64,000 bases of DNA, taken from positions 29,388,001-29,452,000 of the forward strand of contig NC_059440.1 in NCBI RefSeq assembly GCF_021028975.2, written 5' to 3'. Numbering within the stretch: position 1 is the first letter of the stretch; every line of letters starts with the position of its first letter. The position numbers and the translations under genes are program-made. The notes beneath the pieces are model-generated. The model saw only the letters and a program-made list of their open reading frames with translations. It ran no database searches and had not been told where the DNA came from. Origin of the DNA: Sphaerodactylus townsendi (Eukaryota). Positions 5,111 to 24,186 of the stretch are shown one piece after another.

Positions 5111-5415
5111 TGTTCTCAGCAGTGCTGCTCCCTGTGTTCCTGTCACAACTGGCCAGGGGCCGGCCGGGAACCCTTTGCACACAAGCCCCCCCCCCCCCCC
5201 AATGCCCTGCCCTTTGCTCAGCATGCTCAGCCCGCAGGCACGACTGCTTAGCAAGGGGCCTCTTCGGCACAAGCCCTGCGCTGAATACAACAACAGGCTC
5301 ATGCGCTGCAGCCATGGCTAGTAGTGGCACTTGTGCGGAAAGCGTTTTCGAAGCATGGTGTTTCTTTCGGACTTGCATCTTGCATTAAAACCAGGAATTT
5401 AAATAAAAGATTATC

Positions 5416-5421
5416 TTTATT
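5416..5421 (-). terminator. Polyadenylation signal (AATAAA) for the DDI2/RSC1A1 transcript
   Basis: tttatt on the + strand in an AT-rich tract about 240 nt past the RSC1A1 stop. Confidence 0.55.
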
Positions 5422-5660
5422 TCATAATGCAGTACCTCAATAATAGTAGTAATTAAAAGTTGACATGTGGTTCAAGATTTGATTTTTTTTTAAAGCCTGA
5501 ATTGAACAAGGGGAAAAAGACAGACAGAGGATACTTTGGCTGAAAATAAAGCATTAAAAAAACAAACATCTAGCTCAAAAACCCAAGCAGAGTACTCTAT
5601 GCAGTCAAGATAAATTCTTGAAGGAAGTAAAGAGCAGGAGCCTGGCCATCTTTTTCACGG

Positions 5661-7390
5661 TTATGTAGGAACGACAATATTCTTGGCTAACAAAATGAGG
5701 AGGGCAAGATCCACGTTGCCACCAGCTTGCTCAAGGGCCTCGCTGGCTTCCTGGGGTGTGAAGCCTGCTCTCGTAATTTGAGCAATGTCCACAGAGGAGA
5801 AAAGTGGAGGCCGAGAAGGTGCAGAATCCATTTCTGGAGAGCAGATGTGCAGCGCAGCTGGTTCAGTGGCATCCGAGGAGACCGGCACTCCAGGCTCTCC
5901 TGGGGGAAAATCCAGAACCCTCCAAGATTCAGTGCCCCGCGTGAGGTCAGAGGGAGTCTGCTCCACAGCTTCGTCGCCTGCAGCATGGTCAGGAGACAAG
6001 CACGGAGATAACATTTCAGTGCACTCACCACACGGAGGCGGTTGGGAGGCTGCGGAAGATCTCCGAACAATGGAGCTGTCCCAACCCAAAGGCTCCTGGA
6101 TGAGGAGAGAATCTGGTGGTTCCAGGGCCTCCTGCCCGTCCTCTGCTCCAGCCCCAGAGAGCCACTCCCCTGCAGAGGCTCCAGCCCCAGGACACGCCGG
6201 CACCCCTTCGGGAGAGGAGAGTTCCACATCCCGGATGTCTCGGCCACATCCACGCTCCTCTTGAAAGGCAGCGTCCTCTTCAGGAAAGGTCCTTGGCTGA
6301 TCAAGGCTCTGGGGCCAAGAAGCCTTTTTGTAGCTGGCAACCAGAAGCTGATGGAGCTCCTTCAAGGCTGACGTGAGGGAGGGACAAGCCCCTTCCGCCT
6401 GGTGGCCCACCTGCCCTTCAGGAGGAGGAGGAGGAGGACCTGAGCAGCCGGCAGGGGCAGCCATGTCTGCGGATTCCACTGCTGCTCTTCCAGGCTGCCC
6501 CAAGTCCTTTGCAGAGATAGGATCAGCGGAGAGAGAAGAGTCAGGCTGGGATGACTGGGCCTCCATCATGGAGCACTCCGAGTTCACGGCAGACAAACCA
6601 AAGCGCTGCTCTTTCAGCTGGCTCTCCGCAGAAATAAGGACCTGATCTGTGACCTCCACTTCCATGACGGTTTCATCCCCAGGAAGCTGGTGTGGCGCAG
6701 ATTCTGGCCTCTGGGTCCCCTCACAGGAAAACTTCCACCCCTCAGGCAGAACGTGATCCATGGCCTGCCCTCCACGTGCAGGGGATGGGGATTCACCCTT
6801 GGCAGACAAATCATCTTGGCTTCTGGTTGTCTCGTCTGGGGGCTGTTCCGGGCCAAGCTCTTCATGGGGACTGGGACCCATTTGGCTCAATTTCAAAAGC
6901 GAGGGAGGCAGCAGACCAGCGACGTCTCCTGCTGGGGCATAACTACTCCCTCCTGTTTCTTCCAAAGGAGACTCTAGACCTGGACCACTGCCCTTAGCAC
7001 AAGATGGCATTGGAGTGCCAGAAGTGACCAGTTTTGCACACGTGTTGGGTGAGGGACTTTTTGTATGACGGCACGGTTCTGTTGCAGCTCGAGAAGCATC
7101 AACTCGGGTGAAAGTTTCACCATCAGAAAGATCCAGCAGTCCTTCCCTCCCGAGAGCGGCTGGGCACTCAGGAAGGGATTCTACAGACTTTGCAGCTGTC
7201 GGGTTAACAGTCTGAGCCAGACTGCACTTGTGGGAGCAGAGGGTGGGAGCAGAGGCGGAGCGATCGAGGGGCCGCCTGAAGGACTTCCTGGTCTTCAGAG
7301 CCACTTCGGGAAAATGGACTGGATGCTGAAATCCATCAGAACTCGGCAACAAAGACTGTTTCGGTGAGGTAGTTTCTTTGCCAGTAATCT
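5661..7390 (-). CDS. RSC1A1: RSC1A1 (RS1)-like coding exon with C-terminal UBA domain; also the terminal exon (exon 10) of DDI2
   Basis: 1730-nt open frame. The N-terminal LPSSDGFQHP matches human LPTSDGFNHP, and the internal ALKELHQLLVAS is conserved. The C-terminal FSSVDIAQITRAGFTPQEASEALEQAGGNVDLALLILLAKNIVVPT matches the human RSC1A1 UBA end. Preceded by a strong pyrimidine tract and CAG acceptor at 7393-7391. First in-frame ATG is only at 7010. Confidence 0.9.
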
Positions 7391-7869
7391 CTGTGCGGAG
7401 GGAGGAAGAGAGAAAAGAGCTGCATCAGATTCTGAACATGACCCAGGGTGCTGGTGCCACTTTGACCAGAGAGGGGCAAAGCGCACTCAGCGGCCTTACT
7501 CTGACCAGCATGCATCTGGAGTGAGGGACAGGGTCAAGGGAAAGGCTCTCACCTGCCTCAGCAATTCAAGCACACTTAATAACCAGACAATCAGAGAGAC
7601 CACAGAAGGTTTTATTATTGTCATTTCTCAAGAAATTGCACTAATGTAAAAAAAAAGGGGGGCTCTCAAATTATTTTGACAAAGACGATGAGTTGTGTTG
7701 CCTCGGTTCTTCCTCTCCTCAACGAGACAGAAAAGCACAGTTGGCTCAGCAGCCCGCTAAGCGACACACTCTGACCAGCTCAACTGTGGCCCTCCGTGGG
7801 GCTCACACCTGAGGCCATGAGGTCTTGCTCCCTCCTCCCAGGGTGCCGCTGCTGCTCTCCCGCATCCAC

Positions 7870-7990
7870 CCCCAGTCCTCGCAGAGCTCTCTCAGCCTCA
7901 CCTGCCTCACAAGTGTGTCTGTTGTAGGGAGAGAAAGGGAAGGAGTTTGTGTGTTGCTTTGAGACTCCTTATAATTGAGAAAAGTGAACA
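7870..7990 (+). mobile_element. Squamate SINE 3' fragment (same family as 45017-45298)
   Basis: ctctctcagcctcacctgcctcacaagtgtgtctgttgtagggagag..ggaagg resembles the reverse complement of the SINE at 45017-45298. Confidence 0.6.
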
Positions 7991-8439
7991 ACAGGCCTCA
8001 CCTGGCCGTCCGCCCTCAGAAAAGTCTGCTTTGTGAGGTAAGATCAAAGCAGCAGTCCCAGCAAGAGATGGCTTTTGGAGACAGCTTATTCAGGGCTTCA
8101 AAGGGAGCCACCAGTTCTGAGGTCTGTCTTGTACCTTCGAAGCCTCCAGCTCACGTGGCAATGTCTGCAGTCTGACTGCGGAGGCCAAGAAGCCAAAGCC
8201 ATCAACAGGTGGGCCCGTGGCACAAGACACCAGCACTGGGAGCAGGCATCTGTCTGAAACACTTTCTGGTTTGATCCTCTCTGACAGGCAGAAACCAGAG
8301 CATCACACAACATGCAAGCCAGCTCCGTGGCGATCAAAGGAGACCAAGGAAGTGGGAGGAACCGTTCAGAAACCGGGGCTGTGTGTAAATACCTGGTCTG
8401 TGGCCCACTCCAGCAGCAGCAAACCCCACACTACATGCA

Positions 8440-11400
8440 TCAAGGCTTCTGGTGCTCTGTTTCGAATTAGGAGACAAACACACCAAACTTGTGTTAGCAC
8501 ACTGCACATGCACAGTCCGGGCTCGCACCCTCCCCCGTCGCCTTTCCCAACCCGGCTTCGTTCAAGATAGGAGGCCCTCTCGATTTGGGGGCTCTTCCGA
8601 GAGCAGCTGCTCTGCCGTCCGTAGCACAGCAAGGCCTCACCGCAAGAAGAACGGCCCCTCTCCAAGGAAGGCACACTCTGCGCAGGCAGCGGCCCGGCTG
8701 GTTCCTGCTTTCAGCTGCCGCTGATGCGAAGCAGGACAGCCTTGGAGAGACTGCCAGACTCCACTCCCTTCTGCCACTGGTGCTGCCTTGCTTGCAAACT
8801 GTCTTCCTTCTGTCCCCCTGTCCTTCAGTTTGACCATGGAAACGAGGCCACTCCAACGGGACACGGGAACTTTCCAGGGGAATCAATCCCTCCTGATGCT
8901 GAGGTGCAGAACTCAACTGGAAATGGCTCAGGCACCAAGGCAGACAAGCCAGCCCACGGCTTCAGCCGCACAGGGCCCTCTGCAGAAGGGCACCCCAACG
9001 GGCAGGCTCTGCACGGAGCACCCTGCCAAAGCCCTCAACCCACAGCCCGCCACTTGCTAGCCTGGCCCACTACGCTGCCTTGCCTTGCGCAACCTGACTC
9101 TCTGGCCAGGCTCAGCTTTGCTGCCTGCCTCCTGACGGCTGCCCTCATCAAGAAAGAAGCTTCAAGAGACCTCAGGACTTCCTTGAAAAAACCTTCCTCC
9201 GCTTGCAAGTTACACAAGCTGGGCTGGCTGGTTCTGGCAAACTCAACAGGCTCCAGCGTGCCTGGACGTCTCTCACCGCAGCCCTTCCCTGCCACTCCTT
9301 GCAGACTGGCAGGCAGCAGAGACATCTAGAGCGAGGGAGAGCAGAGAACTGCCTGAGAACATTCTGAGTGCCCCTGGCTGGACACCAAGTCTCGAGTACA
9401 CCTCAAGTCACAACAGTGCCCAAGCAGGCAAGGGGCTTCCCTGCCCAACAGCCAGGAAGTCAGTGATGGAGAGAGAACAGGGAGGTGCATCTCACACCAC
9501 CTCAAAGATGCATCCCAGGTGGATTTCCCCAACAGAATGCATCTGGGCTCAGACTGGCGGGTGGGAAGTCCAGCTCTTAAAGTAATTGGAAGGGAAAAGG
9601 AGCGCACGGCAGCATTCTTCCCAACGCAGCAGAAGGAAAGCAGAAAAATCCATTTCAAATATAACCCTATAAATTGCCTACGGACACTTGACGGTTGCGG
9701 CATTTCTGGAGTACTGGGGGTACAATCCTGCTCCTTCGCTGGGGGGTGATGAATGAGAGTCTGCTAAGAGCAGCCTATGATGATAAGAAACTTGATTCTC
9801 CTATATAAAAACCTGGCACCCACCCAGAGTGCGAGCGGCCAGAGAATTCCACCAGGGCCAAGACAGGCCGGATGGTGCAGGGCAGCTCCCTTGTATAATC
9901 CACTACAGTTATCTTCTGCTGAAGCAATCACTGATGGACAGACCAGAACACGGCCAGGCAACCTGCCTGCTGCCTCCTAGGCTGCTGCCCTCTTGGCCAA
10001 GAAGCACTCCTGTGGTCTGTCCTGTCTTGACCTGACTTGCTCACCAGGAAGCCCAGAGGCTACTTTTCTGCTGACCTGTTGTTTTTGTTACACCAAACTT
10101 TGGTACTTCTAAGGAAGAGCAGAAGGAAGGAGAGGCTGTGCTTCACACACCCCATGACAGGCCAGCTGGAAGGCCTCAATGAACGCAAGGCTAAAAGCTG
10201 AAGCTGCTCAAATACCAGCTTGAACGGTGAGCTGCCCTGTTGCATTTTGTTCTTGAACTTCTCTGAGAGCGCTCCGGCGGCTGGAGCACAAAGACAGACG
10301 GTCCTGGGGTAAAGAGAGTCTACTGATGTCCGGACAAAGTTACTCTTGTTCACTTGGCCTTCCTGCTCTCGGAGTCGAAGATCTCTGTGGAATTCAGCTC
10401 TAGCTACAGTTTTTTGAAGGGAAGAGGACTGATGAATCAGAGTATTTTAATATACCTTCTGAGACTGAACCTTGTGGGGTTAGGCCTATATTATCTTATG
10501 GATGCTTTTCGGGGGGGTGGGGGAGGGCACCACATCTGGATCATGCAAGCTGAATTTCAAGAGATTAAAAGGAGTGCCTTGGTCAAGATGGTGGACTAGC
10601 CAGCCACCAATGGCTTCCAGCCTGACAAACAATAGCCAGCAAGGCAAGCCGGCACTGGTAAGACCCGGATCCACATTGACTGACCCTCGGAAAGGACCTT
10701 TTCTGCCTCATTTGCTGCACTGGATTGTTACCAGATTCAGGCCCGCTAATCAGGGCACAAACTGAGCAGTCATTCTAATAAGGCACCCAACTGCTAATGA
10801 GCCTTCCTCCCGCTGGCTGTGACTTGGCTAGGCAAGCGGCGGGAGTCTACTGGCCTCCGGAAACGCCTGGTGCTCCTGCCTCCTCAGGCTGCGCATCACA
10901 TGCAATCATGTGGCACAACCACACCAAGAAACAGCAGCATTGAGACAGTTCTAGGAAACTATAATGTATACAAGACAAGGGGGGGGTGCAACTTGAATAA
11001 CCAAACAAGCAAATATTTGCACACAACAAAGCTATCAGTCATAGATTATGTGGTTTGTGATAAATTATAGTCTATGACTGCTAGCGTGTGCAAATATTTG
11101 CTTGTTTAGTAGTTCTAGGAAACTGCCTGGAGGGAAACTAGTCCATCTCCTTTGGCCACACTGGGCTGCCCACAGGAGAGGTGGCCCCGATGTGCCTCCC
11201 CACTCATCCTCTGTCTACTCTGGGCCCTTGAGGTACCTGCTTCCTCGACAGATTTTTGGATAGCCTCTGCCAGTTCGTGGTCTGCAATCTCTTCTGGCCT
11301 GACATCCTCCCGGCCAGCCCCGTAAGCCAGCCTTGCGCACTCCGGGAGCTCCCCCTCTGGCAGGAAGGTTGTCTGAGAGCCGGTGGTGCCAATCACCAAG

Positions 11401-14400
11401 ACATTCTTCTTGAGGTCAATGGAGCACTGGGGGAGGGACCAAAGACGGAGAAACTGAGCCCTGTGACAGTAGGGGACCCCCAACCCTTTAATGCCCGCAA
11501 GACCCTCTGTGGAGAGAAGATGGGGGGCTGCCACCCAAAATGGCTGCTGCAGGAGGCAGAGCTGCACGTGACACCTCCTCGGTCGCTTTGCAAAAGAAAC
11601 AGCTCAGCAGCCACACTGGACTGGTCCTGGGTTGACTTTGCTTGGAAGCCAAGCCCTGGGAATAGGGACACAGATGACACTGGGGGGGAGGGGCTCCAGT
11701 GCTCCGGGCAGCTGCAGACACAGCTTTCCAAGACCCCCTCCTCTCCCCCTTCTCCCTCCAAACAGTTCAACTTCCACTGATTTAAGCATGCCTGCCTTGG
11801 CAGCATAATGAGTGTCTCCTTAAGGTGCTGGCTGGGCAGACATGGGGACGGCCAAAACAGTCATGGAAAAGGGCATTTGACTGCCCTGTGTGCCTCAGTG
11901 ACTCCATAAGTGGGCCCCACCTGGTGTGAGTTTTAAGCAGGAGAAGAGTTCAGATGGACTGCAGAGGCTCTGACCCGCTCACCTGGTGCCTCTTCAGCAT
12001 ATCCAGTCCTAGCAGCATGTCCATGGGCTGCTCTTCCAGGATGGAGAACGAGCAGGGCAGGAAATCCCCTTCAATCTGGACCTGAGCTGAAGCAGACGGA
12101 GAACTGCCTGTGAGCTTCCCAGAGGCTCCTGCCCTGGCTCCACACCGGCAGCCCCTCCTGTGCCCGCTTACCTAGATGCACTCGGCCAATGATCTTCTGA
12201 GTGCCCACGCCCTTCGCAATGCCGGCCCACCGCCGGTCCACCAGTCTTATGGGATGTTGCACCTCTCAAGCAAGCCAGTTCATGATGGTCATCTGAATTC
12301 TGAGACATACTGCATTGTCAAAAAGATTACAATCACTTGAGAGAGAGAAAAACCTATTGCCTTTTGCAAGGTCTTCCTCCCAATCGGGCATTTTTTCATA
12401 GAAGCTAAAATAAAGCTTCAAAAAATAAGCATACATGTAAGATTCATTTGTCACAGCATGACACCAAATTCTGGCAATTTAAAACAGCATTGGGGAACAA
12501 AACACCCCCAACACACAAAGATATAGGCACTGACTGCATCCCCCGCCCCCCGGTTCTAACATACTGGACATCCCACCCAAGTGTGCTTTCTGCCAAGCCA
12601 GCCGTCCGTCCCCCCGACAGTTTGCCCCAGCCAGCCCAGTCCGCTGAAGCAACAGATCCTTTCCAGTGCTGCTCTTGGTGGTCATAAGAACATAAGAACA
12701 AGCCAGCTGGATCAGACCAAGGTCCATCTAGTCCAGCTCTCTGCTACTCGCAGTGGCCCACCAGGTGCCTTTGGGAGCTCACATGTAGGATGTGAACGCA
12801 ATGGCCTTCTGCGGCTGTTGCTCCCGATCACCTGGTCTGTTAAGGCATTTGCAATCTCAGATCAAAGAGGATCTAGATTGGTAGCCATATAAATCGACTT
12901 CTCCTCCATAAATCCTGTCCAAGCCCCTTTTAAAGCTATAAAGGTTAGTGGCCAAATCACCACCTCCTGTAGCAGCATATTCCAAATGCCCACTCAATCA
13001 CACGTTAAGTGAAGAAGTGTTTCCTTTATTAGTCCCACCTTCTTTCCCCAGCATTTTCAAATTGAATGTCCCTCTGGTTCTCAGTATTGTAAGAAAGAGA
13101 TGAAAAATGCCTCTCTGTCAACATTTTCTACCCCATGCATAATTTTCTTGTAGGACTTCAATCATATCCCCCCCTCAGTCAGCCTCCTCTCCAAACTAAA
13201 GAGTCCCAAACGTAGCTGCAGCCTCTCCCTCATAGAGGAAGGTGCTCCAGTCCCTCAATCATCCTTGCTGCCCTTCTCTGCACTTTTTTTCTATCTCCTC
13301 AATATCCTTTTTGAGATGCGGCGACCAGAACTGGACACAGTACTCCAAGTGCGCGGCTCCACTGCTTTTATATAAGGGCATGACAATCTTTGCAGTTTTA
13401 TTATCAATTCCTTTTCTAATGATCCCCAGCATAGAGTTTGCCTTTTTCACAGCTGCCATGCATTGAGTTGACATTCCCATGGAACTATCAACTAAGACGC
13501 CCAAATCCCTTTCCTGGTCTGTGACTGATAGCACTGACCCCTGTAGCGTGTATGTGAAGTTTGGATTTTTTGCCCCTATGTGCATCACTTTACATTTTGC
13601 TACATTGAACTGCATTTGCCATTTCTGAGCCCACTCATCTAATTTATCAAGGTCCGCTTGGAGCTCTTCGCAATCCTTTGTGGTTCTCACCACGCTACAT
13701 AATTTTAGGGTGGTGAGAACCACAAAGAACCATAATTTTAGGGTCCTTTCGCTAGAGACACCGTGGACTGAACCCAGGACCCTCAGCAAGCCAGAAAAAG
13801 GCAGGCGTGCACAGCGCTGAAGGCAGGCCCAGGGCAGAGGGCCCCCAACACCCCCGGTCGTGCTGTGCCTGAGCCAGAAGGAAAGAAAAGGGAAGGGGCG
13901 CCCCCTCCAGCCTCACCCGAGTCCACAAAGGCCTTCACGGGGTGGCCGTTCACCTTGCAGTTGATGTAGAGCATGACCACCTGGCCGAAGCTCTCGGGGG
14001 CCTCTTCCATGGCAATTGTCATGTTCTCCTCGATGTTCTGCTGCCTGGAGCCAAGGGCCAAAGAAAAGGCTCAGTGCTCCTGAGGCCTGACGCTGCTCGT
14101 TCCTGGGCGGGCCAGGCAGCCTGTCTTCAGGTGGATGTGTGGCCCTGGGGTGGTGGTGGAGGCCAACCCTCCATGGGCCCAGAATAAGGCGCACGGGCTG
14201 TGAACGGGGGCTGCCGTGCCCCCTCGCCCACCCAGGACACATGGGGCTAGAGGGAGCCCTGAGGTGCAGGAGGCTAAACTGCTCCCGTGCGCCCTCTTCT
14301 CCCCTCCCACCTGCTCCAGGGAGTGACCATCCCTCGCCAGACAGCCACTTTACTGTGCAGAGATCCCCCAGCTCCCAAAGGCCCAGCTGGGCAGCAGAGC

Positions 14401-17400
14401 CAGGGCTGCCCTGCTTAACTCCTGGGTTCAAACTAGATCCCCCCACCCCACAGCATCGAGGCCTGGCCCCTTGGGCTGGTTACCGGATGTCCTCCTCGAT
14501 CTTTGCCTGAGCCTCCAGGTCAAAAGGGTCCGCAGAGAACAGACGGAGCCTCTCCTGCTCCCGGCGGGCCCGATCCTGCTGCTGCTCCACCAGGACCTGG
14601 GTGAACTTCTCTGCAGACATAAAGAACCCAGGCAGGTTGGAGGCCAGAAAAGACACCCATCAAGGCGGCAACCATCGCCCACGCAGAAACATTCAAAAAA
14701 CATTGTGGTAGGAAGAGACAACCCCCCTCCCCCCCGCACCCAAACTCCTCTCCCTAGCTGGAAAAACACTGCCTGTCTTCTGATGCTGTCACTCAAGCGC
14801 TTCAACCAAACAGCAAAAACAGAATCCTCAAAGAGGTGGCTGCCCCTGTGTGAGATCTGTGGGTAAGCAAACACCAGAACTCTTTGCAGCTGCTTTTATC
14901 ATAGCGACAGGTGATTTGAGGGCTCACTTAAAGTGGCAATCCCCCCCCCACACCCCACACACAAGATTTTGCTTTGCTGAACAGCCTCAAAGCCCAAACT
15001 TTGATTCAGCCTCCTTGGAGAACAGCCCCCATGGTTTCCCAACGGAAGAAGTGGAAGAGCGCCATTGTGCCAAAGCTCCACTTCAGCCTAACCAGAATGC
15101 ATTCCTTGCTGACGTAACATTCCAGCCGAGGAGCTGCGGATCAGTGGGTGCGCATCTGCTCGGCATGCAGAAGGGCCCCAGGTTCTATCCCCACCACCCT
15201 CGATGGAAAGAACTGGTCATAGCTGATGTGGAAGACCTCTGACTTGAGACCCTGGAGAGTAGCTGCCGGCCTGAGCAGAAAATACTGACTCAGATGGTTT
15301 GGTTCAGTAAGAGGCAGCTTCGTGGCCAGCAATCACCCTTCCGACAGGAGCCACTCGGCCCCCACATCGCCACCGCAGCAGGAGAGTGAGATGCTTTCAC
15401 ACATACCAGCGAAGGAGGACTGCCCCAGGATGCTCCCGGGGTCACAGCAGGCCTCAGCCCCAGAAAGACCAGACGGAGCAACGGTTCACTACTTAGCAGT
15501 GTTATTCATGGCACCCATGTGCCCCCTTCCCAAGTAACCCTCCCACCAAATGCTCCAGCTTCTATCAAAGGCAGAAACTACTGCCCACCTGCAGAACAGC
15601 CCACCCCTGCGAGCCAGGAGGCAGCCCCCCAGTGGCTGGAGAAAAACCCCCTTGGCTGAGTGCGACTTCCTGGCCAGCATCCTCAGCCTGATGGCAGGTT
15701 CCAAAGGGAGAAACCAGTCACCTCCACACAGCCAGGCCGAGTGGGGTGGGGGTGGGGAGCCTCCTCTGCCTCGCCCAGCCACTCACCAAGGTCTCCGCTC
15801 AGCAAGGCCTCCGCCAGGGGCGGGTTGCGCTCCTTCAGCAGCGAGAGCTCGTGTGGGTTGGACAGCAGCATGTCCCGGAGGAGGCCAGGGTTGTCCAAAC
15901 CTGGAGGCGCGGGGGGGACTTCGGGAGGAGACGCGCGAGAGGGCGGCCCAGGCTGTTGTGGGGGCATCGGTGCTGTTTGGGCCGACGTCCCGGGCACCGT
16001 GATGCTGCTGAAGTCTATCCGGGGCAAACCTGGGGAGAAGGAGAAACTCCTCAGCAGGCTGATGCCGCGCAGCCCACCCTGAACCAGGAGGTGCTGCAGA
16101 AGGATCCCCCCCCCCCCCGGGAACTAATCGCCTTTGTATCTGCACCGAGGATCCCCTTGGAAGCAACTGGCTCCATCCTACCATCCTAAGGAGACACTTT
16201 TCTTGGACCACCCCAACATTCTTGGTATGGTCGCATAGCAGGGGGATGGGGGACATATGGGGCCAAATGTCCCTGGGCTGTGGCCATTTTGTCACATGGG
16301 GGGTGATATTTCACACCCCTCCTCCTTCCAATAAACTGGGTCCATAAACTGACTTCAAGACTTGGTGCAAAAAAACCCTGTTTGGTCATGGTGGGGGAGG
16401 GCAGCTGCCTGTAGGGGGGGGGGACTTTTTTGCACCGAGCTCCATTTCCCCTAGATATGCCTCTGGCCCACCGCAGAAGTGGCGGCCCCCAAAGCTTGCT
16501 TTCAAAACCTGAAAGTGTCCACAGACGTAACAAGGTCAGCCAAGAACCCTGCTTTAAGCACAGCTCTTTCCACCAGGCGTCTCCAGGGCGCACGGCAGTT
16601 CGGGCTAGCTAGGGAGATAGTGAACAGACCACAGTTAGTCTTGTGCTGCTCTAGTCCTTCTGGGTTCTTATGCCATTTTGCCAGACTTGAGATGAGAATC
16701 GCAGATCTCTTTTGCCAAGACCACCCAGGGCTGTGGGTCCGTGGCGAGCCCGCTCAACTCCCTAGAACCTGGACTGGGGCTGGGTCTTCAGGCAAAAAGT
16801 GCCTGCACTTGAGGCCTCAACAATCCCAAATGCTTTCCACAAGGGTCTGTAGACAGCGCTCCCACCCAATGTGGAAAAGAAGTGTCTCTCCCCCCAGGAC
16901 CAAGAAACCTAATACCCTCCCTCTTCAGATGCTTCTGCAACGGCACCTCCCCTTTCTACTGCAGGGTGTCCAGCCAGTCCGCAGAAGGGGCCTGCATAGG
17001 ACCCGAGATCAACAGGTACTGCGGTCGGGGGTGGGGGAAAGGCAGCCCAACCCCAACCCCAGATTGAAGTCACAGATAACAATACTTTCACCCGCACTTA
17101 TCACAGTAGCTTCTGATGACATGGCAAAGCGAAACCAGAGAATCAAGGAACTGTGCCTCAACCTGACCCAAGGGTGCTGCTCTCACCAGGGAAGGCAGCT
17201 GCCGGCCGTTTTTCTGCATTCTCCACTTGCTGCAATACCACCACATCTCCATCTTTCAGTCCGTAGGAAGCCAGTGATCTATGGTTGTCAGTTAGGGGCA
17301 CCTCTGCATAGACAATCTGGAGGAAAAAGGGAGGCTAGTGAAAAGCTGACCAAGAAGTTCCAACTGAGCAGAGGGCAGCTTATGGTCCAGATCGGCCTCT

Positions 17401-18426
17401 CCAGCAGGCTCCCAGCCACGGCCATTCCTGTGCTCACTGCCAATTCATTTCACTGAAGCCCCTTCGGCTTGGGAGGGTTAAAGGGGCTGAGGTGCCACTT
17501 TCTGGACACAGGGCTGGCAGCCGGAGCTCCCCTCACTGCAATTCATCCAATCCCACCCCGTTTCTTTTTCCACGTAGGTGGCCCTGCCTCGAATTGACCC
17601 GGAGGACTCTGCTTCCTCAGCAGCCCTGATTGTAAACCGAGAGCTTCGCCCCACCCGGCCCCCAAGCAGCAGCCACCCACCCACCCCCGCCGCAGGGTTT
17701 GGCAGGGAGACACCTGGCAGGAGAAAGGCGTCCTCCGCCCACCCCCATCTGCTGCACCCTGACGACGGTGGTGCCAAGTGGGAAGCAAAGAGCTGCTCCT
17801 CCAGATCCCTGGGCCCTCCCCAACCACCGGGGCTGAGAGGCGGGGCGGGGAAGGGCGAGGACCGGGCGCCCTCCTCCTCCTCCGGCCTCTGCCAACCCTG
17901 GCCCAGCCTGCCAAGAGCGCCCACCGGCCCACACAGCCCGGGGCAGCCCAGCCCCCTCCCTTCCCGCGGCCCCCACCGGGCAGGGCGGAGCAGACCAGAG
18001 CCGCGGGGGGAGGAAGAGGGGGGCAGCCAGCCCAGGCCAAGGAATCTGCCGCGTCCCCGACTCTTAAAATAGCCTCTCTCGCGGGCGGGCGGGCGGGCGG
18101 GCGGGCGGGCGGGGGGGAGAGAGGGGAGGAGCGGCCGCCCCGCCCGCGGGGTCCCGGCCAGCCAAGGGGCAGAGCGAAGGGGGGGCCGGCGGACTGAGCC
18201 CCCTCCCGGCGGGGCCGTGGCGCGGGGCGCCCCCCCTTCCCTTCCCTTCCCTTCCCTTCCCTCCCTCCCTCCCCCCCGGGGCGCGGACCTGGCTCTCGGC
18301 GGCGGGGATGCCGGACTCGAGCTCGCAGAGGGCGCGGAAGTTCTGGAGCTCGAAGTCCGCGTCCACCTGCAGCGAGAAGGTCAGCTCGGAGCGGTCCCGC
18401 CGCAGGCAGAAGACCGTCAGCAGCAT
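8440..18426 (-). CDS. DDI2: DDI2, DNA damage-inducible 1 homolog 2 (UBL, HDD, retroviral-like aspartic protease, UIM); about 401 aa
   Basis: Exons: 18426-18289 ([27 protein letters not shown]..), 17316-17187, 16029-15787, 14610-14484, 14044-13917 (..KAFVDS-G, catalytic Asp), about 12299-12172 (5' part corrupted by indels), 12086-11983, 11426-11237, 8456-8440 (EHQKP*; exon extends to 8393). All introns are GT-AG and phases are consistent except at exon 6. Confidence 0.95.
10947..11124. repeat. AT-rich hairpin insertion flanked by a 14-bp direct repeat
   Basis: agttctaggaaact at 10947-10960 and 11111-11124. Perfect 22-bp inverted repeat at 11003-11024 / 11086-11107, plus an inner 14-bp inverted repeat at 11036-11049 / 11067-11080. 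Confidence 0.85.
12683..13706 (-). mobile_element. 5'-truncated CR1 LINE in DDI2 intron 5
   Basis: ORF2 RT C-terminal part [69 protein letters not shown]. The 3' terminal repeat (cataagaa)2 is at 12683. Confidence 0.93.
15128..15325 (+). mobile_element. tRNA-derived squamate SINE (Squam-like), diverged
   Basis: tRNA-like head (cagtgggtgcgcatctgctcggcatgcagaagggcccaggttc) followed by a gaccctggagag..ctgccggcctgag body. Family assignment is from memory. Confidence 0.6.
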
Positions 18427-19068: not shown

Positions 19069-19207
19069 TTGGGAAAGATGAACAAGACGGCCCCTTGGGC
19101 CCAGAGCCAGCCCACCCACCCACCTACAGTAGATTGGCAGCAAAACTTCTTGTGGAACGCCTGCCCCTCTCCCCCCCCAGTCATGAACCCACGGCAAGGC
19201 CTCCCAC

Positions 19208-24186
<4,979 letters not shown>

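Follow-up and report, generated by a model that had tools for sequence, protein, structure and literature searches.

The RSC1A1 frame of Sphaerodactylus townsendi is a last exon of DDI2 without its usual ATG and is likely translated by skipping of exon 9

In the gecko Sphaerodactylus townsendi, the RSC1A1 (RS1) frame is the last exon of DDI2 without the usual ATG, and it is likely translated, by skipping of exon 9, as the tail of a long DDI2 form; we give this reading a probability of about 0.7. According to this proposal, exon 9 would be skipped in some tissues of this gecko, giving an in-frame join between exons 8 and 10 and a protein consisting of UBL, HDD, protease and UIM, followed by a long low-complexity linker and a UBA-type domain.

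The window, i.e. the whole stretch of 64,000 nucleotides that was analysed, carries DDI2 on its minus strand, in the order exon 1 (from 18426), exon 8, exon 9 and a last exon that starts at 7390 in phase 1. The stretch holding the locus is single-copy in the 1.81-Gb genome; the best database protein match is from Sphaerodactylus townsendi and the next four are from geckos. As expected for RSC1A1, the orthologous frame lies directly downstream of DDI2. The features on which the argument relies are given below, in window coordinates; X1 and X2 are an RNA-like and a DNA-like run from two samples of organism A, of which X2 may be the assembled sample itself.

18289..18426, minus strand: coding part of DDI2 exon 1 (start of the UBL), inside a CpG island (GC 0.76, CpG o/e 0.74)
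11983..17316, minus strand: DDI2 exons 2-7, placed by GT-AG ends and match to gecko DDI2
17316-17187, 16029-15787, 14610-14484 and 14044-13917, minus strand: DDI2 exons 2-5
about 12300-12172, minus strand: DDI2 exon 6, garbled in the assembly
12086-11983, minus strand: DDI2 exon 7
11237..11426, minus strand: DDI2 exon 8, 190 nt, ends in phase 1, encodes the UIM
8507..8512, minus strand: TGCATG (RBFOX-type) upstream of exon 9, 51 nt away
8393..8456, minus strand: exon 9, a 64-nt internal exon with both joints in run X1
8442-8440, minus strand: DDI2 stop TGA in exon 9, 47 nt before the last junction
8434..8440, minus strand: overlapping TGA/ATG (8440), ATG 8436 and exonic TGCATG (8439-8434)
8311..8316, minus strand: TGCATG (RBFOX-type) downstream of exon 9, 77 nt away
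7391..8392, minus strand: intron 9, 1002 nt, GT-AG
5661..7390, minus strand: open reading frame of the last exon ('RSC1A1'), 575 codons after the phase-1 join, without stop or frameshift
7359..7390, minus strand: linker codons upstream of the Met site, including a TTS motif
7356..7358, minus strand: CAG at the RS1 Met site, from alignment to relatives and contigs
7008..7010, minus strand: first in-frame ATG of the RS1 frame, in a weak context
6342..6371, minus strand: SALKELHQLL, a conserved helical motif midway along the RS1 exon
5664..5801, minus strand: C-terminal UBA-type three-helix domain (Pfam, solved-structure match, helix prediction)
5416..5421, minus strand: AATAAA, candidate polyadenylation signal of the shared transcript (the X1 contig ends at 5483)

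DDI2 exons 2-7 encode the UBL, the HDD and the retroviral-protease-like domain. The 5' part of exon 6 (12172-12330, minus strand) contains an in-frame TGA and lacks a clear acceptor, and the garbled stretch is invariant in eight aligned relatives; to judge from the sequence, the garbling is probably a local assembly error. Intron 5 contains, at about 12700-13750 (minus strand), an indel-ridden remnant that we take to resemble the 3' end of a CR1-type LINE. One high-copy short repeat lies in intron 9 (7790-7990), with a depth above 100,000 in DNA-like runs, and another high-copy repeat is found near 10890-11095. At 19200-21000 and beyond (minus strand) lie what we take to be the last exons of an upstream gene resembling DDOST/OST48, which ends about 650 nt before the DDI2 start.

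The original prediction held that RSC1A1 lacks a start codon of its own here although its N-terminal motif is conserved, that its frame is open back to the splice acceptor, that the first in-frame ATG lies more than 110 codons downstream, and that both ATGs of exon 9 are out of frame; all of this was upheld. At the position of the RS1 Met the alignment has CAG (7358-7356), and the frame is open from 7424, across the acceptor AG at 7392-7391, down to the stop at 5663-5661. The first in-frame ATG, at 7010, lies 116 codons downstream of the CAG. In exon 9, the ATG at 8440, which overlaps the DDI2 stop, starts a run of 47 open codons in the +1 frame, and the ATG at 8436 is in the +2 frame and directly followed by TAG. 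The RS1 proteins of Artibeus and Chrysochloris start with the same motif as the one quoted for human RS1 in the original prediction. Neither a QSP nor a QCP motif was found in the 575 residues of the RS1 frame. Since neither exon 9 nor the Met site supplies an in-frame ATG, a protein carrying the N-terminal motif needs either skipping of exon 9 or a non-ATG start.

That the CAG is an assembly error, as might be feared with the garbled exon 6 only 5 kb away, has a negligible probability, and we rule it out, because not a single other letter is found at this codon in the contigs of X1 (5483-7393) and X2 (5300-7911). Loss of the Met is, moreover, common in relatives.

Indeed, the missing ATG is common across vertebrates and ordinary in itself, not peculiar to this gecko, so that the rarity implied by the original prediction was not borne out. 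In a set of 32 named species hand-picked to span the vertebrates, the Met is absent from 19: all six non-tetrapods (chimaera, two teleosts, Amia, sturgeon and coelacanth), three of the five amphibians (the three being frogs), seven of the twelve squamates, rat, Rhea and Pogoniulus. It is present in 56 of 66 linker-bearing proteins, a bird-heavy set. All 32 species, from chimaera to mammals, retain the TTS motif that precedes the Met site, and the Met, absent from 19 of them, therefore behaves like an internal residue. On the species tree, its history would presumably comprise one gain in tetrapods and about nine losses. In our proposal, the 'RS1 start' would be an internal Met that was gained in tetrapods and then repeatedly lost, since the exon can do without it. 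Rat is a convenient test species, since its model P0307 has Thr at the Met site and is annotated as a 959-aa DDI2-RS1 protein.

How the RS1 exon is attached to DDI2 can be seen in run X1, which is not on record as RNA and was judged to be RNA by its GT-AG joints. It has two such joints, 11237-8456 between exons 8 and 9 (depth 67) and 8393-7390 between exon 9 and the RS1 exon (depth 66), which make exon 9 internal and place the RS1 frame in the final exon of the DDI2 mRNA. The acceptor of intron 9 has a strong pyrimidine tract (18/20). In X1, the RS1 exon is thus transcribed as an exon spliced onto DDI2 exon 9, in contigs from which start sites cannot be read. Inclusion of exon 9 gives a DDI2 of 400 aa and leaves the RS1 frame in the 3' UTR. 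The NMD rule sets a distance of 50-55 nt from the stop to the last junction; with its stop 47 nt before that junction, the short mRNA would, by this rule, escape NMD.

The original prediction regarded a DDI2 fusion as the simplest way to translate the conserved motif, and this stands in part. Joining exon 8 to exon 10 keeps the frame, the only stop being the one at the end, and annotations from chimaera to mammals contain the same join; the exon 8 donor is predicted to serve both the short DDI2 form and the long form. The long product would be about 970 aa, a figure that uses the exon 6 length of relatives because the assembly is garbled there. As for the skip joint itself, no exon 8-10 joint was found among the joints of X1, the sole RNA-like run of this organism. 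Rare forms are lost from contigs, which are no measure of levels either, so the X1 result neither shows absence of the skip form nor supports it. The depth of the exon 8-9 joint (67) matches that of the exon 8 contig (61), hence inclusion of exon 9 looks dominant in X1. Note that X1 contigs also span introns 8 and 9, and that an AATAAA inside intron 9 (7611-7616, minus strand) could end a transcript with exon 9 as its terminal exon. Two other routes out of DDI2 were considered. Read-through of its stop was ruled out because a second stop, TAG, follows two codons past the TGA and the frame is not that of RS1; a second donor in exon 9 (GT at 8408) still leaves the ATG at 8440 out of frame.

The long form is already predicted in databases, and its spliced RNA was not found in the one RNA-like run of this species. 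A direct exon 8-10 join is found in 60 of the 63 database proteins that have both the protease site and an RS1-type C-terminus, a set made up of computed models that includes isoforms of one species. The long form is represented in fishes (Callorhinchus, Huso, Amia, Carassius, Cololabis and Latimeria), amphibians (Geotrypetes, Pleurodeles and Ascaphus) and amniotes (turtles, birds, lizards, Artibeus and Rattus). Every case of the skip comes from annotation pipelines; such isoform models usually rest on RNA-seq introns. Among 20 assembly-derived ORFs (Logan/JGI/ENA), the exon 8-10 skip was not found: 13 have the exon 9-10 join, four contain intron sequence and three start at the Met. Some database proteins have other joins at this locus: in Patagioenas an acceptor inside exon 9 bypasses the stop, in Alligator the annotated join adds 25 residues, in Paroedura X2 there is an in-frame internal intron within the RS1 exon, and one ORF reads through a short intron 9 (proteins P0038, P0039, P0006 and P0047). 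The short ORFs P0235 and P0248, with which P0256 is grouped, have a UIM-like motif, a short linker and the same UBA, a sequence layout that is suggestive of the ancestral one.

Exon 9 has features that could make it a switch. The bases after the DDI2 stop in the window, TGATGCATG, contain TGCATG (UGCAUG in RNA), which we take to be the RBFOX motif. Together with the upstream and downstream copies, three TGCATG lie within exon 9 and 150 nt on either side (364 nt), against 0.15 expected (p 5e-4 at the window's own rate), in a count made after the motif had been noticed. This is the sole such cluster on the minus strand of the window, none being found around six other exons; a fourth TGCATG lies in intron 9, at 7514-7509. 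The pyrimidine tract of the exon 9 acceptor (12/20) is the lowest of the eight acceptors compared. Clustered UGCAUG, a short exon and weak sites are what is expected of an RBFOX-type cassette, an assignment that is likewise post hoc. Upstream and exonic RBFOX sites favour skipping, and a downstream site favours inclusion. In our proposal, RBFOX acting at the three UGCAUG sites would drive skipping of exon 9, with brain, heart and muscle as the predicted tissues.

The same bases bear on a rival explanation, in which ribosomes that have passed the DDI2 stop would re-initiate in exon 9 to make RS1, using an ATG in other vertebrates and, in this gecko, a near-cognate GTG (8429 or 8408). Here no stop interrupts the RS1 frame in the 3' part of exon 9, in-frame exon-9 ATG starts are found in database models of Varanus, a galliform, Hyla, Spea and rat-cluster ORFs, and several of the models that start in exon 9 lack the inner Met. 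Furthermore, the G-run of exon 9 is one base shorter, at 8424, in organism C, whose exon has 63 nt, than in organisms A and B, where it has 64; this difference would bring the ATG at 8436 into the RS1 frame in organism C, so that re-initiation stays a rival for other species. For this gecko we nevertheless hold it to be improbable. Neither ATG of exon 9 is in the RS1 frame here, and a model that starts in exon 9 is no evidence of use, since gene callers prolong a frame to whatever ATG lies upstream. The models of this kind in Hyla, Spea, Dryobates and the rat-cluster ORFs read M(M)HV, which indicates, from several lineages, conservation of the bases that follow the DDI2 stop. The ATGs and the frame of the exon-9 peptide, by contrast, differ between lineages, which fits a nucleotide-level constraint better than a conserved start.

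We then turn to selection on the RS1 frame. Identity to Gekko is 59% (75/127) over residues 1-127 versus 53% (215/403) over residues 128-530. On this gecko's branch of a fixed tree, the rates are 0.297 for residues 1-126, 0.288 for the linker (127-529) and 0.069 for the UBA, which has thus changed about four times slower than the linker; judged by these rates, the UBA is constrained. The ratio of residues 1-126 to linker is 1.03 on this branch (bootstrap 0.56-1.55) compared to 0.59 tree-wide, the branch ratio exceeding the tree-wide value in 58 of 60 replicates; the Met-retaining lacertoids Podarcis, Lacerta and Rhineura give values of 1.08-1.24 for this ratio. Upstream of the ATG at 7010, therefore, identity to relatives is as high as downstream and the branch rate is raised.

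Such rates could be read as favouring a free, shortened RS1 started at ATG 7010 or 6881 through a local promoter or leaky scanning, with the upstream motif a decaying remnant: residues 1-126 are fast on this branch while the UBA is still constrained, and the database model of the closest species (P0002) is a truncated RS1 that starts at ATG 6881. This explanation is, in our view, as unlikely as re-initiation. The ATG at 7010 has C at both -3 and +4, corresponds to Met in none of nine aligned relatives and is preceded by five out-of-frame ATGs on the exon 9-10 mRNA; the frame upstream of it is intact, and no CpG island was found upstream of the last exon or in intron 9.

A further rival, to which we attach slightly less weight still, is that the exon has recently turned into pure 3' UTR, both starts being lost, skipping negligible and the frame not yet decayed. 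Only inclusion joints are seen in X1, and the extra base of exon 9, present in organisms A and B and not in C, may be recent. Against this, the 575 codons are open and the UBA is slow. In addition, comparison with organism C over the last 177 codons gives eight synonymous and eight nonsynonymous changes among 16 listed differences (22 of the 26 differences of that contig being listed), i.e. a pN/pS of 0.35 (p 0.03 without transition correction). We retain skipping of exon 9 as the preferred reading. Assuming one indel per ten substitutions, the chance that a 126-codon frame survives untranslated is about 0.03 at 0.1 substitutions per site, which speaks for this reading, and 0.2 at 0.05, which speaks less for it.

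What skipping would add to DDI2 is, at its C-terminus, the UBA-type domain. Pfam UBA (PF00627) matches it with E 0.0012 and 19 bits, below the curated cut-off of 22.4. The structural model has helices at 21-29, 34-43 and 48-59 (pLDDT about 90), which form a three-helix bundle like those of solved UBA domains, and its top fold matches are UBA domains. The best solved match, both by sequence (E 0.023) and by fold (rmsd 0.5 A over 34 columns, E 0.08), is the UBA of Mud1, which we take to be the fission-yeast Ddi1; no fold match in the comparison with solved structures reached E 0.001. Conversely, a search with the RS1 profile picks up the UBA of P0274, a Ddi1-like protein from a fungus, with E 1e-4. 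In our proposal, the domain would bind ubiquitin. These sequence and model lines are each weak singly, and agree with the proposal of an ancestral UBA in RSC1A1 (PMC4962041).

In its available text, PMC4962041 states that the Ddi1-like proteins of all vertebrates lack a UBA, attributes this to insertion of a new gene, RSC1A1, and has the ancestral UBA become part of that gene; 'exon' and 'splic' occur 0 times in that text. The absence of a UBA from vertebrate DDI2 is repeated in PMC9062259 and PMC11012796, whose available portions do not mention RSC1, and the former calls ubiquitin binding by DDI2 unclear. For its part, RS1 is presented, in the accessible parts of PMC7462918 and PMC11469190, as a free regulator of SGLT1 trafficking that acts through QSP, the active motif reported for RS1-Reg. 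Among ten papers naming both DDI2 and RSC1A1, PMC4962041 alone mentions each more than once. The titles and abstracts that literature searches listed contain nothing on a long DDI2 form or its splicing; subscription papers (including the original RS1 gene papers) and supplements lay outside this coverage. The long form is thus already in databases, yet contrary to the UBA-less vertebrate DDI2 of the published texts, as far as these were available.

Taken together, the observations allow a broader reading, which we put forward tentatively and consider somewhat less probable than its negation. RSC1A1 would be the expanded ancestral last exon of Ddi1 and not an inserted gene, and the stop-bearing exon 9 would be a vertebrate novelty forming an RBFOX-controlled switch between UBA-less and UBA-bearing forms. 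Long DDI2 would be the main product in fishes, frogs, many lizards and rat, free RS1 a secondary tetrapod product of the internal Met, and the phenotypes of Rsc1a1-null animals partly due to loss of long DDI2. DDI2 cleaves NRF1 and is studied as a target alongside proteasome inhibitors; RS1 is known for SGLT1 regulation, and knockout mice are obese. If true, a conserved, splice-controlled UBA-bearing DDI2 would reopen the question of ubiquitin binding and change the reading of RS1, as regards both SGLT1 regulation and the obese knockout mice. The missing ATG of this gecko is useful here as a natural test of skipping versus a non-ATG start.

Four known systems can be compared with the gecko locus. 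The closest are the long RefSeq/UniRef models named 'protein DDI1 homolog 2 isoform X1' (e.g. Gekko P0003, Callorhinchus XP_007905422.2, Latimeria XP_006004330.1, Artibeus XP_037001998.2 and Rattus A0A8I6GFW9), which have the same exon 8-RS1 join, linker and UBA-type domain. These models are computed and belong to other species, the closest species' own model being only the truncated RS1 from 6881; in contrast to them, the gecko locus offers an in-frame ATG neither at the Met site nor in exon 9. Mammalian RS1 (RSC1A1) shares with the gecko the orthologous frame, the LPxSDG motif, the helical motif in the middle and the C-terminal UBA, whereas the gecko frame has neither its own Met nor QSP or QCP. 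The short vertebrate DDI2 (UBL-HDD-RVP-UIM) is the very form, 400 aa long, that the gecko mRNA including exon 9 gives; it is said to lack a UBA in the available text of PMC4962041 and PMC9062259, whereas the gecko splice structure would allow a UBA form from the same transcript. Finally, the fungal and invertebrate Ddi1/Mud1 proteins (UBL-RVP-UBA) share their domain order with the predicted long form of the gecko. Ahead of the UBA, the gecko form has a linker of about 530 residues where those proteins have about 50 and, unlike in them, the UBA of the predicted gecko form would be optional through splicing.
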